Positions 15,500 through 24,673 are shown, numbered from the stretch's first letter. The stretch: 64,000 nucleotides of DNA from Candidatus Microgenomatus sp. (GCA_020724585.1 DYGS01000001.1:486002-550001), one strand, 5' to 3'. Numbers and translations are program-made. The notes: generated by a model from the letters alone, not told the origin.

Positions 15500-17447
15500 A
15501 AATGACTACGGCGCCGATCAAATACAGGTTTTGGAAGGTTTAGAGCCTGTCAGAAAAAGACCTGGAATGTATATTGGGTCAACCGACTCAAGGGGGCTTC
15601 ACGAATGCTTAAGAGAAATTATTGATAATTCCGTTGACGAAAGCTTTGCGGGGACAGCAACACATGTCTGGGTAACTATAAATCCTGATGGTTCGGCAAC
15701 TATTAGAGATAACGGCAGAGGGATTCCAGTTGATATGCATAAAAGCGGTGTTTCTGCGCTGGAGCTGACCATGACCAAACTTCACGCGGGAGGCAAGTTT
15801 GGAGGAGGAGCCTATAAAGTATCGGGAGGTCTTCATGGAGTTGGGGCTTCAGTTGTCAACGCTTTGTCTTCATACTTTAGAGTAGTTGTTTTACGCGGCG
15901 GAAAAATTTATTACCAAGAATACAAAAAAGGAGTACCGCAAGACAAAGTCAGGGAGGCAACAGAAAAACAAATTGCCGACTGGGGACTTGACTTAAAAGA
16001 TCAAAAATCAGGAACTATCACTTCTTTTTTGCCCGATAAAGAAATCTTTCATGATCTGGTTTTTGAAAAAAATAAAATTAAGAGTTTGCTTAAAGACAGA
16101 GCCTACTTAATTGCCAAACTTGGGTTTAGCTTTAAAGATCTAAGGGATGGCGAATCGGCAAATTATTACTTTGAAGGAGGAATTAAATCTCTAGTTTCTC
16201 ACTCCAATCGGGGCAAAAAGTTAATTAGCGATGTTATTTATATCAGTAAAGAAGCTGATAATATTTCTTGCGAAACAGCTATACAATATACCGATAGCTA
16301 CACAGAAAATGTCAAAGGCTTCGTCAATGGCATATATACTACAGACGGCGGAACCCATGTAACCGGTTTTAGAACAGCTCTCACCAGATCAATTACAGAT
16401 TATGTTAAAAAAACTTCAAACGGCAAGGATGAAATTATTTTAACAGGCGATGATTTAAAGGAAGGCCTATCTGCAGTGGTTTATGTCAAAATGCCATCAG
16501 AGTCATTGCAATTTGAAAGCCAAACTAAAGCAAAACTTAATAATCCTGAGGTTCAAGGTTTTGTTGCTGCGGCAGTTAAAGAAGGTTTAGATACCTATCT
16601 GGAGGAGCATCCCCAAGATGCAAGAAAAATTATTGAAAAAGTTACTTTAGCCGCCAAGGCAAGGCTTGCCGCAAGGGCCGCCAAAGACGCGGTCTTAAGA
16701 AAAGGGGCACTGGATGGCGCTTCCCTTCCTGGAAAACTTGCAGATTGCCAATCAAAAGATCCTGCTGTCTCAGAACTTTATATTGTTGAGGGGGACAGTG
16801 CGGGAGGAAGTGCCAAGCAGGGAAGGGATAGAAGGCATCAGGCGATTTTACCTTTAGGGGGTAAAATTTTAAATACCGAAAGAGCCCATCTTGATAAAAT
16901 AGTTAAGTTTGAAGAGATTAAGGATTTAATTGTTGCCCTGGGGGCAGGAATAGGGGAGAGCTTAAATTATGAAAAAATGAGGTATCACAGAGTAATAATT
17001 ATGACTGATGCTGATGTTGACGGAGCACATATAAAAACGCTGCTTTTGACATTTTTCTTTAGACACATGCCTGAAATCATAAACAAGGGATACTTATATA
17101 TCGCCCTTCCGCCTCTTTACAAAATTACAGTTGGTAAAGAATTTAAATATGCTTTTGACGATGATGAAAAAGACAAGTTGATGAAAGAATTTGTGGGTGA
17201 TAAACAAAGCTTGGTCGGCTCCGCCGGTAAAAAGTTTACAATCTCCAGATATAAAGGTTTGGGAGAAATGGACGCGGATCAGCTTTGGGAAACAACGATG
17301 AATCCGGCTACCAGAACTTTAAAACAGGTAACTGTTGAAAATGCCGAAGAAGCCAGTAAGATGTTTGAGATACTAATGGGCGAAGAGGTCCCCCCAAGAA
17401 AAAAATTCATCCAAACACATGCCAAAATGGCCACACTAGATATTTAG
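15489..17447 (+). CDS. gyrB: DNA gyrase subunit B
   Basis: 652 aa. GHKL ATPase motifs ([14 protein letters not shown]). TOPRIM motifs ([16 protein letters not shown]). Characteristic C-terminus. Confidence 0.95.
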
Positions 17448-17674
17448 GCAAAGGCTGTGGGGTGATATTTTTGAATTACTTCTTCATGGATATCAAGTCT
17501 ATTTTGGGTAGCATCATGCTTTCTATTTAATGAATCAATATCGGCTTTTATATCTTTTATATCACCTTCAACTACATCCAATTTATTCATAATTTTATCC
17601 AAAACAGGAAGTATTACATCACATACACCTTCATTAAGAACACTAACCATTTCATCTTTTTGCTTTTTTGTCAT
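17444..17674 (-). CDS. Small coiled-coil protein of the '...AFA' C-terminal family (copy 1)
   Basis: 76 aa, ending ...[16 protein letters not shown]. Paralogous to the ORFs at 21099..21356 and 24407..24673. Convergent with gyrB, with a 4-bp overlap. Confidence 0.5.
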
Positions 17675-17723
17675 ACATTAAATATATTCTTGATTTAATA
17701 GTAGGTCAATATATAATAATTGT

Positions 17724-18260
17724 ATGAACTTACTTCATGACATAGCTTTTGGAAAAGTTGATGAATTTGTAAATTCGTTTATTGAAATCCCCAAAGGATC
17801 GATGAATAAAATTGAATATAGATATGAAGAAAATATTTTTGTTCTTGATAGAGTAGAACCAGAGATATTTGCAAAACCTGTAAATTATGGTTTTATTCCA
17901 CAAACATGGGATGAAGATAACGATCCACTTGACACCTTAGTAATTACTTCAGAACCGTTATCAACTGGTCTAATGGTTAAAGCAAAAGTAGTTGGAGTTT
18001 TAAATTTTGTTGACGACGGAGAGCCGGATCATAAGATAATCTGCGTTCCAGAAGATGACCGAAATGAAGGAAATACAATAAATGATTTGACTGATCTTCC
18101 AAAAAGATTAATTGAAAAATTAGAACACCACTTCACGCACTACAAAGATCTTAAAAAACCAGGTTCAACAGTCGTTGAAGGTTGGGGAAATAAAGATGAG
18201 GCATGGAAATTAATAATGGACTGCAACAAAAGATATTCCTCAAAATTCTCTAAATCCTAA
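17724..18260 (+). CDS. ppa: Inorganic pyrophosphatase (family I)
   Basis: 178 aa. Contains EIPKGS.NKIEY and [20 protein letters not shown] signature motifs. Confidence 0.9.
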
Positions 18261-21777: not shown

Positions 21778-24399
21778 ATGGAAATTGGCAAGATTCAAAC
21801 AACTGAAATAACCTCAGAACTTTCTAAATCATATGTTGATTATGCAATGAGCGTTATCGTAGCTCGCGCTCTCCCCGATGTTAGAGATGGTTTAAAACCG
21901 GTCCATAGAAGAATTCTTTACGCCATGGCTCAAATGGGTCTTAAAAGTTCGGGAAGTTTTACAAAATCGGCAAAAGTTGTAGGTGAAGTGTTGGGAAAAT
22001 ATCATCCCCATGGAGATCAAGCAGTCTACGATACTTTAGTCCGCCTTGCTCAATCATTCTCAATGCGCTACCCACTGATTAAAGGTCAGGGAAATTTCGG
22101 ATCTGTTGATGGCGATTCAGCAGCTGCTATGAGGTATACCGAAGCTAAACTTTCAAGTATTTCTGAATTCATGCTTTTGGACATTGAAAAAGATACCGTT
22201 GATTTTGTCGACAATTTTGACGCCACACTTAAAGAACCTGAATATCTACCCGCTCTTCTTCCAAACTTACTTTTGATGGGTAGTGAGGGAATCGCGGTTG
22301 GGATGGCGACAAAAATTCCCCCGCACAATTTAAGCGAGGTCATTTCAGCTATTAATTTGATTATTAAAAAGGGTAGGGTAGTCGTCCTCTCGGACGAAGA
22401 GCAAAAAAAAGAAACCGATTTTGTCATTAATAAAATTAATTTGGTTGCCGCAGGTGAGGCCAAGCAATTATCAGAAACTGATGTCAACCCTAAAACTATT
22501 TCATTTGAAAGCGATGCCGAAATTGATGAGATTATTAAAGTTTTACCAGGACCGGATTTCCCAACCGGCGGGGCAATTTATGATGCGGAAAGTTTAAGAG
22601 AAGTTTATGCAACAGGAAGGGGTAGGATTATTATCAGGGGAATTGCTGGCATTGAGGAAAGTAAAAGTGGCAAAACTCAAATAATAATTACAGAAATACC
22701 ATACCAGGTTAACAAAGCCGAAATGGTTGCAAAAATTGCAGAGCTTGTAAAAGATAAAAAGATTGTTGGGATTTCCGATTTGAGAGATGAGTCTGATAAA
22801 GAAGGTTTGAGAGTTGTAATTGATTTAAAAAGAGACGCCAAGCCAAAATCAGTTTTGAACAATATTTTCAAACACACAAGGCTTCAGACAACTTTCCCCG
22901 CAAATTTTGTGGCCCTTGTTGACGGCACTCCGCACACATTAAATTTAAAACAAATTTTAGTTGAGTATGTAAAACATAGACAAAAAGTAGTTGTTAGAAG
23001 AACAATATTTGAATTAACTGAAGCCAAAAAAAGAGCTCATATATTAGAAGGCCTTAAAATTGCACTTGATAATTTGGATGCAGTTATAAAAACAATCAGA
23101 GAAAGTAAAACCCAGGAAGACGCCAAAAATAATTTAATAACTCGATTTAAATTGTCAGAAATTCAGGCAACAGCGATTCTTGATATGCAGCTTAGACGGT
23201 TGGCCGCCCTGGAAAGAGAAAAAATTGAAAAAGAGTACGAAGAAATCAAGAAACTTATTGACCAACTAATTGCCATTCTTAGAGATCCTTCAAAAATTTT
23301 AACGATAATAACAGAAGAACTTTCTGATTTAAATCAAAAATTTGGAGATGGCAGAAAGACTAAAATCTACAAAAGCAAAGTCGGGGAGTTTAGCGAAGAA
23401 GATTTGGTTGCCAAGGAAGATGTTTTAATAACAGTTACAAAAACCGGCTATATCAAAAGAGTTTCAAAAAATGCCTACAAAGCTCAGAGAAGAGGAGGTA
23501 AAGGGGTAATTGGGATGACAACTAAAGAAGAGGATGAGATCGACCATCTTGTTTCTGCCTCAACTCACGATCAAGTGCTCTTCTTCACCAATAAAGGCCG
23601 TGTTTTTGGAACAAAAGCTCATGAGATCCCTGAAAGCAGCCGCCAAGCAAAGGGACAAGCGCTGGTTAATTTCCTAAATCTTGAACAGGGGGAAGAAATT
23701 AAATCTGTACTCCCAATGAACAAAGAAAAAGCTCCTAAATATTTAGTTATGGCAACATCTAGCGGGGTAGTTAAAAAGACTGACTTGAAGCAATTTGAAA
23801 ATTTGAGAGCCAATGGACTGATTGCAATAAAGTTGCAAGGCGGAGATAGTTTGGTCTCTGTTCATCCATCCTTCGGAGTTGACAATATCATGCTTTTGAC
23901 CAAAAAGGGGATTGCTATAAGATTTCCGGAGGGAAATGTTAGGCCAATGGGGAGAGCAACAACGGGTGTTACAGGCATAAAACTTGACAGCGGCGATAGC
24001 GTTATTGGAATGGAGGTCTTGCCTGAAAAACTTAATATACCCGAGGACAAACGCAAAAAAGTTTTCATGGATATTTTGACTCTTTCGGTCAATGGTCTTG
24101 GAAAAAGAACAAGTTATAATAACTTTCCAACACAAAAAAGGGCAGGGAGGGGGGTTAAGGCTTGTATAATTGGTAGTAAAACAGGGGACTTAGCATGTGC
24201 AGTCAAAGTTACTGAAAATTCTGATCAATTAGTCATAACATCTAAAAAGGGACAAGTAATTAAACTGCCTATCAAAAATATTCCACAACTAGGTAGAGCT
24301 ACACAAGGAGTAATAGTTATGAGATTCGCAGAAAAAAGTGACTCCGTTGCAGCCGCAACAGTAATTGACAAAAGTGGGGATGATGAGGGTGAAGAATAA
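21778..24399 (+). CDS. gyrA: DNA gyrase subunit A
   Basis: 873 aa. Has the [23 protein letters not shown] and YHPHGD motifs with catalytic Tyr. Has the GPDFPTGG box. C-terminal beta-pinwheel repeats. An insertion lies N-terminal to the GPDFPTGG box. Confidence 0.95.
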
Positions 24400-24406
24400 A
24401 TACTGA

Positions 24407-24673
24407 TTAGGCAAAAGCTGGATGAGAATTGTGGGGATGGATTTTTTCTAATTCTTCTATCCTATCTGTATTATCATAAGTTCTTCCACTAACCATTTTC
24501 ATTTGGTCTTCAATGTCATCTAACCTTTTAAGTATTTTTAAATTTTCCTCAAAAAAAGTATCTTTATCAGGTAAGTATTTCAAGTCTTCTTTTGTGGTTA
24601 TATCCATTTCATCCAAAGCTACTTTTACAGCTTCTTTTATAACCTTAAAAATATTTTCATCTCCCTTTGTCAT
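24407..24673 (-). CDS. Small coiled-coil protein of the '...AFA' family (copy 3)
   Basis: 88 aa, ending ...DRIEELEKIHPHNSHPAFA. Convergent with gyrA. Confidence 0.5.
   Translation of the reverse strand: MTKGDENIFKVIKEAVKVALDEMDITTKEDLKYLPDKDTFFEENLKILKRLDDIEDQMKMVSGRTYDNTDRIEELEKIHPHNSHPAFA

Follow-up and report, generated by a model that had tools for sequence, protein, structure and literature searches.

A family of small acidic coiled-coil proteins with three paralogues around the gyrase genes of a Candidatus Microgenomatus genome

We analysed a stretch of 64,000 nucleotides from Candidatus Microgenomatus sp. (GCA_020724585.1, DYGS01000001.1:486002-550001; hereafter the window, with positions counted from its first nucleotide), in which three small open reading frames (ORFs), here called A, B and C, lie within 7.2 kb, from the end of gyrB to the end of gyrA. 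A first-pass annotation had described them as paralogues of 76, 85 and 88 aa that share a C-terminal Ala-Phe-Ala (AFA) tail; their coordinates, lengths and tails were all reproduced, and public gene calls include all three. We find that A, B and C are real, separately transcribed members of an undescribed family of acidic, soluble and all-helical proteins of ~75-130 residues, each gene having its own promoter and no operon partner.

Three small genes at the gyrase loci

The three genes differ in how they are placed relative to the large genes around them (Table 1). Gene A is convergent with gyrB, their stops overlapping by 4 nt. Gene C is convergent with gyrA, with a 7-nt gap between the stops, and is divergent from a SIMPL gene. 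Gene B lies 662 nt past the stop of clpB (which ends at 20436), behind an RNase H-like gene on the opposite strand from which it is divergent, and 420 nt upstream of gyrA. The proposal that each gene sits at the 3' end of a large essential gene therefore holds for A with gyrB and for C with gyrA, and fails for B; no family member adjoins clpB, so the supposed flanking of that gene disappears. Neither the remainder of the window nor the 10 kb flanking it on each side contains a further family member (~77 kb surveyed outside the cluster), which makes the three copies a local cluster around the gyrase genes.

Table 1. Coordinates of the three paralogues, their promoter-like sites and nearby genes in the window
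Feature	Coordinates	Strand	Remarks
Paralogue A	17444..17674	-	76 aa; most diverged member; ORF read from sequence
Paralogue B	21099..21356	+	85 aa; subfamily lacking LPTK and IHPxxxH; ORF read from sequence
Paralogue C	24407..24673	-	88 aa; canonical member, sequence DLKYLPDKDTFF...RTYDNTDRIEELEKIHPHNSHPAFA
Promoter-like site of A	17681..17709	-	TTGACC, 17 nt, TATATT, 6 nt to ATG
Promoter-like site of B	21064..21092	+	TTGACA, 17 nt, TAGTAT, 6 nt to ATG
Promoter-like site of C	24680..24708	-	TTGACA, 17 nt, TTTAAT, 6 nt to ATG; overlaps divergent SIMPL promoter 24693-24722
gyrB	15489..17447	+	Stop overlaps stop of A; identified by translation; gyrB of relatives has Pfam GyrB domains
gyrA	21778..24399	+	Convergent with C; B and the orphan ORF lie upstream
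Orphan ORF	21393..21695	+	100 aa from TTG (87 aa as called in L001); directly downstream of B
RNase H-like gene	20433-21044	opposite to clpB	Pfam RNase_H_2

Taken by itself, pairwise alignment relates the three proteins weakly: Smith-Waterman z-scores against 2000 shuffles are marginal (A-B 3.6, A-C 2.1 and B-C 3.95), and comparisons of a single sequence with a profile are likewise weak. Profile tests, however, are positive. A profile built from the 17 homologues of C ranks B and then A as the top non-self ORFs of the window, and a profile built from the 4 homologues of B ranks A and then C. The B and C profiles align in hhalign with 84% probability (E 7e-6) over the C-terminal 29 columns. An independent profile of 236 members from other organisms, from which the window proteins and all their close relatives were excluded, recovers C at E 5e-27, B at 6e-7 and A at 0.006 among the 897 window ORFs (stop-to-stop frames of at least 30 aa), the next window ORF following at 2.5. 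Furthermore, residues 22-72 of A align in register to the LPTKDEFYxKMDEVMGELKxIREE...IHP of family members (phmmer, E 1e-5 to 1e-4), the counterpart of this segment of A, which ends in YHP, being LPTKDEFYTKMDEVMGELKDIR...IHP. The weak pairwise scores are thus rescued at the profile level. The claimed relationship, marginal under the shuffle control, holds on this basis, and the alignments indicate that A, B and C are genuine diverged paralogues of one family, A being the weakest case. In a word-indexed search, 17 homologues of C were found at 49-82% identity and 4 of B (the B-type set comprises P0020-23, P0060, P0098, P0131, P0150 and P0158); for A, this k-mer-limited search found no relative and hence no close homologue elsewhere.

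Codon substitutions point to purifying selection on the family genes. Between C and its 78%-identical orthologue in the locus L026 (fetched loci are given here by L numbers), dN/dS is 0.11 at a dS of ~1.07; more distant pairs, including B compared with its relatives in L029 and L033, give 0.19-0.32 at a dS near or at saturation. Each of the three genes also follows a sigma-70-like promoter of identical geometry, TTGAC[AC]-17-(-10 hexamer)-6-ATG. Since the promoter ends 6 nt from the ATG, transcription would begin with the A of the start codon or a directly adjacent nucleotide, and leaderless mRNAs are expected for A, B and C. Such abutting promoters are a trait of the whole genome and not of the family: promoter matches of at least 9/12 that end 4-9 nt before the start codon precede 12 of the 67 window gene starts, compared with 1.2% of random sites. 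Shine-Dalgarno-like 4-mers occur upstream of 7 of the 67 genes, which equals the random background (9.6%). The genome seems to depend on transcription and translation without leaders (e.g. at the gene starts 17724, 21099, 24728 and 31242).

Signature, distribution and predicted structure of the family

An exhaustive HMMER search of 1.84 billion representatives with a 19-sequence profile returned 519 clusters (at the 50% identity level) with E<=1e-3, 76 of them with E<=1e-10, and nearly all members are 70-130 aa long. The family is found mostly in Patescibacteria/Microgenomates and also in Chloroflexota. A survey of contigs carrying LPTKDEFY relatives, with one genome per species, gave Woese-, Collier-, Shapiro-, Gottesman- and Andersenbacteria, Saccharibacteria, Chloroflexia/Anaerolineae and NC10 metagenome-assembled genomes (MAGs). 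Some family-bearing MAGs are labelled Gammaproteobacteria, and their neighbouring genes are common with Patescibacteria loci. The first-pass annotation had taken the family to be lineage-specific; it instead comprises 519 clusters across several phyla.

The consensus of 271 unique sequences, a sample enriched for LPTKDEFY because of the way in which the loci were fetched, reads M(A)LTxxDLxxIxxLI...variable helix (often xTKxDL repeats)...LPTKDEFYxxMDxvMGELKxIREEqxxLSxRxSDHxDRIExLEkIHPxGxH followed by 1-5 residues. The family signature consists of LPTKDEFY, a ~40-residue heptad helix with HxDRIxxLE and, in about half of the members, IHPxGxH. The turn motif LP[ST][KR] (LP[ST][KR]DEF) precedes the long helix in 111 of 171 representatives, and the C-terminal module [ILVMF]H[PST]x(2-5)H is present in 105 of the 171.

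The three window proteins depart from this pattern to different degrees. At the turn, C has LPDKDTF, A has LPVLDKI (LPVLD where the family has LPTKD), and B and its subfamily have no such motif. The C-terminal module is IHPHNSH in C, is reduced to YHP in A (whose C-terminal end is YHPTAFA) and is absent from B. The helix-end motif [HN]xD[RQ]IxxLE is represented by NTDRIEELE in C, HSDQIEEFQ in B and a degenerate TQNRLDIHE in A. B itself has the core LDSLAGQFKKFDEEREMMxDKIxxHxDQIExxQK followed by a V/A-F/Y-A tail, and its subfamily shares the core LDSLAGQFKKFDEEREMMSDKIxEHTDQIExLQK, followed by V-F/Y-A-S/N. Two length variants occur in metagenomes: in P0073 (62 aa) the central coiled coil is deleted and LPNKDEFYS is fused straight to KIEKLQKIHPHNTHPAFA, and in P0009 (142 aa) an N-terminal xTVDDLK unit is repeated three times.

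An AlphaFold2 model of C based on a 71-sequence alignment has a pLDDT of 87.7 and contains helices at residues 3-22, 28-31 and 37-78, followed by a coil tail at 79-88; with an 18-sequence alignment the pLDDT is 68.9 and the topology is unchanged. The long helix carries an unbroken a/d heptad with hydrophobic profile positions 43, 47, 50, 54, 57, 64, 68, 75 and 78. Polar core positions in the profile are 61 (Gln), 71 (His in 64% and Asn in 14%) and 82 (His). Because Asn substitutes for His at position 71, as it does in C, this residue seems more likely to specify the register or oligomer state than to serve as an indispensable metal ligand. The proteins are acidic (pI 5.2 for A, 5.1 for B and 4.9 for C; family median 5.2). 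No membrane segment is found in A, B or C: the maximum 19-residue Kyte-Doolittle window is 1.22, -0.45 and 0.62, respectively, and exceeds 1.6 in one of 260 family members. The description of these products as small, helical and charged proteins of one family is thus borne out, C being helical in the AlphaFold2 model and all three being acidic.

Library searches return no counterpart. Scans of A, B, C and 19 members against Pfam, NCBIfam, PHROGs and PADLOC gave only sub-threshold, generic coiled-coil noise (in PADLOC, weak LmuB/SMC-like coiled-coil matches of 3 of the 19 members, best E 5.5e-4). A profile search of PDB sequences found designed or generic coiled coils only; Foldseek found nothing in the PDB and chance-level matches in BFVD (E >=4.9). 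An Rfam scan of positions 16500-25500 found no RNA family, and a literature search on the family motifs found no paper. In their source annotations, members are named 'hypothetical protein' or bear evidently spurious names. SlyX (PF04102) and the Mycoplasma family DUF16 (PF01519) are likewise small, soluble coiled-coil proteins of unknown function, DUF16 being a multi-paralogue family in a reduced genome; however, their matches are at noise level (SlyX in 2 of 19 members at E 0.0019; DUF16 at E 0.17), and neither LPTKDEF nor IHPxGxH occurs in them.

The family is thus missing from curated resources and from the searchable literature, so that its description would be new; its fold class is ordinary. 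Patescibacteria have very small genomes with many unannotated genes. With more than 500 clusters at 50% identity, a sharp signature and no Pfam, NCBIfam, PHROG or PDB counterpart, the family is a candidate for a new family entry and a target for structural and functional work. Its present status is that of a well-defined 'hypothetical protein family', not of a new mechanism.

Gene neighbourhoods, C-terminal tails and possible roles

We compared the surroundings of C with those of its relatives. In five loci (the window, L026, L032, L036 and L037) a C-type gene lies tight against gyrA, the spacing ranging from -5 (overlap) to +15 nt (gap), and the order within this clade is a divergent SIMPL gene, the family gene and then gyrA converging on the family gene. 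The family genes of L004/L096 and of L058 also lie on this side of gyrA, but ~270-490 nt away, and SIMPL is not adjacent in L004/L096. The gyrA products of the clade are 71-82% identical to that of the window, and the small protein has diverged to 43-78%. A terminator common to the convergent pairs was considered and rejected: the hairpin and T-run in the 3' end of gyrA are simply a conserved GyrA coding motif (...KKGDSVAAA...) read in antisense.

The other two genes have looser parallels. In L031 a C-like member stands between gyrB and an H+-pyrophosphatase (H+-PPase) gene, co-directional with gyrB; in the window, A fills the equivalent slot, flanked by gyrB and a pyrophosphatase gene, but is inverted. 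In L026, gyrB is next to the H+-PPase gene with no family gene between them, and an equivalent of B is missing; in L016 a family copy lies 7 kb from gyrA. B-type relatives in L029 and L033 are located between dnaB/tRNA-Leu and efp, a site that holds no B-type gene in the window (efp is presumably 36385-36972, and tRNA-Leu is 37019-37103). The link to essential genes is therefore confined to gyrA (C) and gyrB (A), and in the case of C it is a synteny block inherited in one clade.

Across 113 loci, neighbour clustering found no conserved partner gene, and nothing is shared beyond clade-level synteny, which removes the ground for the toxin/antitoxin-like partner that had been suggested. Immediate neighbours are mixed and include housekeeping genes, toxin-antitoxin genes (AbiEii, HepT/MNT), IS1595 and IS200-type (Y1) transposases, tRNA, sortase and DUF11 surface-protein genes. 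In 21 soil/Chloroflexi-type loci (L005, L038, L050, L057, L062, L066, L069, L071, L073, L076, L083-L085, L088, L097-L101, L103 and L105) the family gene is divergent from a gene for a conserved protein of 175-220 aa that has no Pfam domain and matches the uncharacterised phage families phrog_11717 (E 5.6e-15), phrog_27776 and phrog_23738; MT-A70 methyltransferase genes (phrog_359, E 7.6e-78) occur nearby. Many family copies, several of them in these 21 loci, are truncated or frameshifted. No relative of the family was found in IMG/VR, in 50,697 GenBank phage records (tblastn) or among BFVD structures. Two further associations were noted: a gene whose 260-aa product carries an HEQVH motif and matches phrog_6361 is often near the family gene in the 21 soil/Chloroflexi-type loci, and in the Patescibacteria-type loci L014, L017, L019, L024 and L031 the family gene is within a few kilobases of sortase and DUF11/SpaA-like surface-protein genes, which may stem from shared synteny instead of a functional link.

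A, B and C are the only AFA-ended frames among the 897 window ORFs, whereas 0.14-0.19 would be expected by chance from composition. The first-pass annotation had taken this C-terminus as a conserved mark of the family; it proves to be a local feature of this genome, since only 9 of 257 other members (~3.5%) end in AFA and 16 of the 257 in FA. B-type relatives end in VYVN, VYAN, VFPNA, VFAN or VFAS, and in AFA in none of ~10. The AFA codons differ among the three genes (GCC TTT GCC, GCC TTC GCT and GCT TTT GCC), which argues for identity at the protein level and against recent gene conversion. The rough joint chance of three AFA ends is ~6e-4 (~0.5 for the subclade of C and ~0.035 for each of the other two). 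The simplest reading, which we offer as a lead, is that the three C-termini are under one constraint specific to this genome, for instance recognition by a single partner.

Known recognition systems provide a parallel. In Mesoplasma florum, Lon recognises the ssrA tag; ClpXP, FtsH and proteases of the Tsp/Ctp type likewise read C-termini that are non-polar. The M. florum tag, AANKNEENTNEVPTFMLNAGQANYAFA (...NYAFA-COOH), ends in the same AFA-COOH (PMC9097571), a non-polar terminus that sits on an unstructured tail. It differs in that the tails described here are genome-encoded and do not arise from trans-translation, in its upstream residues, and in that the AFA end is not conserved in the family. 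Genes for an HtrA-type protease (Trypsin+PDZ) and an S41 C-terminal-processing protease (Ctp/Tsp, PDZ) adjoin each other at 7066-9414 of L114, ~3-5.5 kb past the right edge of the window, which shows only that such enzymes exist here.

Our best guess from these sequence and model features is that the proteins act as oligomeric coiled-coil adaptors with a C-terminal recognition or degradation tail. Each is built from (i) a short N-terminal amphipathic helix; (ii) a break marked by a capping-box motif (consensus LPTKDEF); (iii) a ~40-residue a/d heptad helix with a conserved polar core residue (the His/Asn of HxDRIxxLE); and (iv) a disordered tail of 8-12 residues, with IHPxGxH in about half of the members. 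The long helix would drive homo- or hetero-oligomerization into a coiled coil, the polar core residue would set register and oligomer state, and the free C-terminal tail would serve as the recognition element for a partner. As all three tails end in the non-polar AFA-COOH, one common partner reading C-termini is proposed, most likely a protease or an adaptor that recognises non-polar C-termini, as with ssrA-type tags; A, B and C would then be short-lived adaptors or regulators. The 'regulatory coiled-coil' role suggested in the first-pass annotation is a possibility. We give the family description and this mechanism together about an even chance of being the right account; the mechanism taken separately is tentative, and we think it more probably wrong than right.

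Several observations count against the adaptor model. No homology or experiment ties the family to any function, and the family membership of A, which depends on the E-value of 0.006 and the in-register alignment, is marginal. The C orthologues at the gyrA locus end in PAFA, QVFA, FASI, VSI, RFRAAT, AIAA and PVFA, and a polar Ser or Asn is the last residue of about one in three family members, so that a degron role cannot be family-wide. Among paralogue pairs in other genomes, the tails agree in one of three informative cases (in L013, not in L049 or L075). A search for a transfer-messenger RNA (tmRNA), whose tag would be comparable with AFA, found none in the window, in the 10 kb on each side of it or in 115 loci.

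Two alternatives start from the genomic surroundings. That the genes are mobile-element- or phage-derived accessory genes, concerned with element-host conflict or maintenance and present in the window as domesticated copies or passengers, would explain the phage-family-like divergent neighbour (phrog_11717) and MT-A70 genes of the 21 soil/Chloroflexi-type loci, the AbiEii, HepT/MNT, IS1595, IS200-type (Y1) and tRNA neighbours elsewhere, the many truncated or frameshifted copies, the different sites of B-type relatives in different genomes and the spread over several phyla. It is nevertheless unlikely, given that no relative occurs in the viral and phage collections searched, that vertical inheritance of the C locus is stable and purifying selection acts on it, and that A, B and C have housekeeping genes as neighbours. 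A gyrase link is less likely still. According to this explanation the paralogues modulate DNA gyrase, or their antisense, convergent transcription enters the 3' ends of gyrA and gyrB; the confinement of all three copies to the 7.2 kb between the gyrB and gyrA ends, with none in the other ~77 kb, fits it, as do the C-type gene converging on gyrA in five loci, the family member in the post-gyrB slot of L031 (co-directional there) and the B-type relatives adjoining dnaB in L029 and L033. However, ~100 other family loci have no gyrase gene nearby, the post-gyrB slot of L026 lacks a family gene and the copy in L016 is 7 kb from gyrA; inherited synteny in one clade could explain the SIMPL-family gene-gyrA block, and local duplication could explain A. 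The small size of the gyrase-binding proteins YacG and GyrI/SbmC and the proximity of gyrA and gyrB here invite an analogy, but YacG is a zinc finger with four Cys and the fold of GyrI is SHS2, whereas members of the present family are all-helical, lack a Cys motif and gave no sequence or Pfam match to either. A combined version for this Microgenomates, Woesebacteria-like lineage, namely a dedicated gyrase-coupled module formed by the two paralogues that lie, in an ancient placement, tail-to-tail with gyrA and gyrB, acting as gyrase binders or mRNA-tuning convergent units whose turnover is set by one protease through the shared AFA-COOH tail, seems to us yet more doubtful.

The remaining two alternatives concern the nature of the proteins themselves. 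XhlA (PF10779), from PBSX-type prophages, is also small, with an N-terminal coiled coil that has an H-x-x-R-I-x-x-L-E-like motif; it has a C-terminal membrane anchor, and its gene sits with holin and amidase genes. The resemblance of HxDRIxxLE to its coiled-coil part, together with toxin-antitoxin genes adjacent at some family loci, could favour an XhlA-like lysis-associated protein or a toxin-antitoxin component, an XhlA-type membrane protein and a toxin/antitoxin-like partner both having been suggested in the first-pass annotation. We consider this very improbable and reject XhlA membership: PF10779 is matched by 3 of 19 members with a best E of 0.022, below its gathering score and with none of A, B and C among the matches listed, the proteins have no membrane segment (a hydrophobic stretch occurs in 1 of 260 members), and they have no holin or amidase neighbour, no conserved partner ORF and no PADLOC match beyond coiled-coil noise. 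Hardly credible at all is a reading as spurious chance ORFs in AT-rich intergenic or antisense DNA. The ORFs are short, and A is without a detectable close homologue outside its own species, but the family has hundreds of homologues with conserved motifs and a dN/dS of 0.11, a separate promoter stands at the right distance from each ORF, and all are called as genes in public annotations; homologues, selection and promoters rule this reading out for B and C.

Were the shared AFA tail really a genome-specific recognition signal, it would open a simple way to study how proteolysis is controlled in an uncultivated lineage. Should the proximity to the gyrase genes prove functional, it would suggest a topoisomerase-linked factor of a new type.

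Other genes of the window and its flanks

The orphan ORF downstream of B is followed by a terminator-like hairpin at 21743-21761 and may be co-transcribed with B. It has no Pfam match and no homologue in any fetched locus except that of the same species.

The gene after gyrB encodes a soluble inorganic pyrophosphatase in the window (17724-18260), an enzyme type that is also encoded beside gyrA in L032. The relatives L026 (14676-16688) and L031 (4398-6389) have a membrane H+-pyrophosphatase in the post-gyrB position, and the type of pyrophosphatase has thus been swapped at a conserved position. The ClpB homologue (18325-20436, plus strand) comprises 703 aa, has no Pfam Clp_N domain and begins directly at its first AAA module. 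At 18294-18322 it is preceded by a perfect TTGACA-17-TATAAT promoter, and the true start of clpB is probably the ATG at 18331.

Further along the window, tRNA-Leu(caa) is followed by genes for a large serine recombinase (37059-38672) and for HsdR (40961-44023) and HsdM (46602-48155) of a type I restriction-modification system. The region 37019-48155 looks like an island integrated at tRNA-Leu. In L029 and L033 the corresponding tRNA-Leu/efp neighbourhood carries the B-type gene and an IS200-type transposase gene. The DnaB helicase gene (59778-62363, minus strand) is split by an intein with a LAGLIDADG homing-endonuclease domain, and the left flank of the window (L115) contains a type IV pilus cluster and a HepT/MNT pair.

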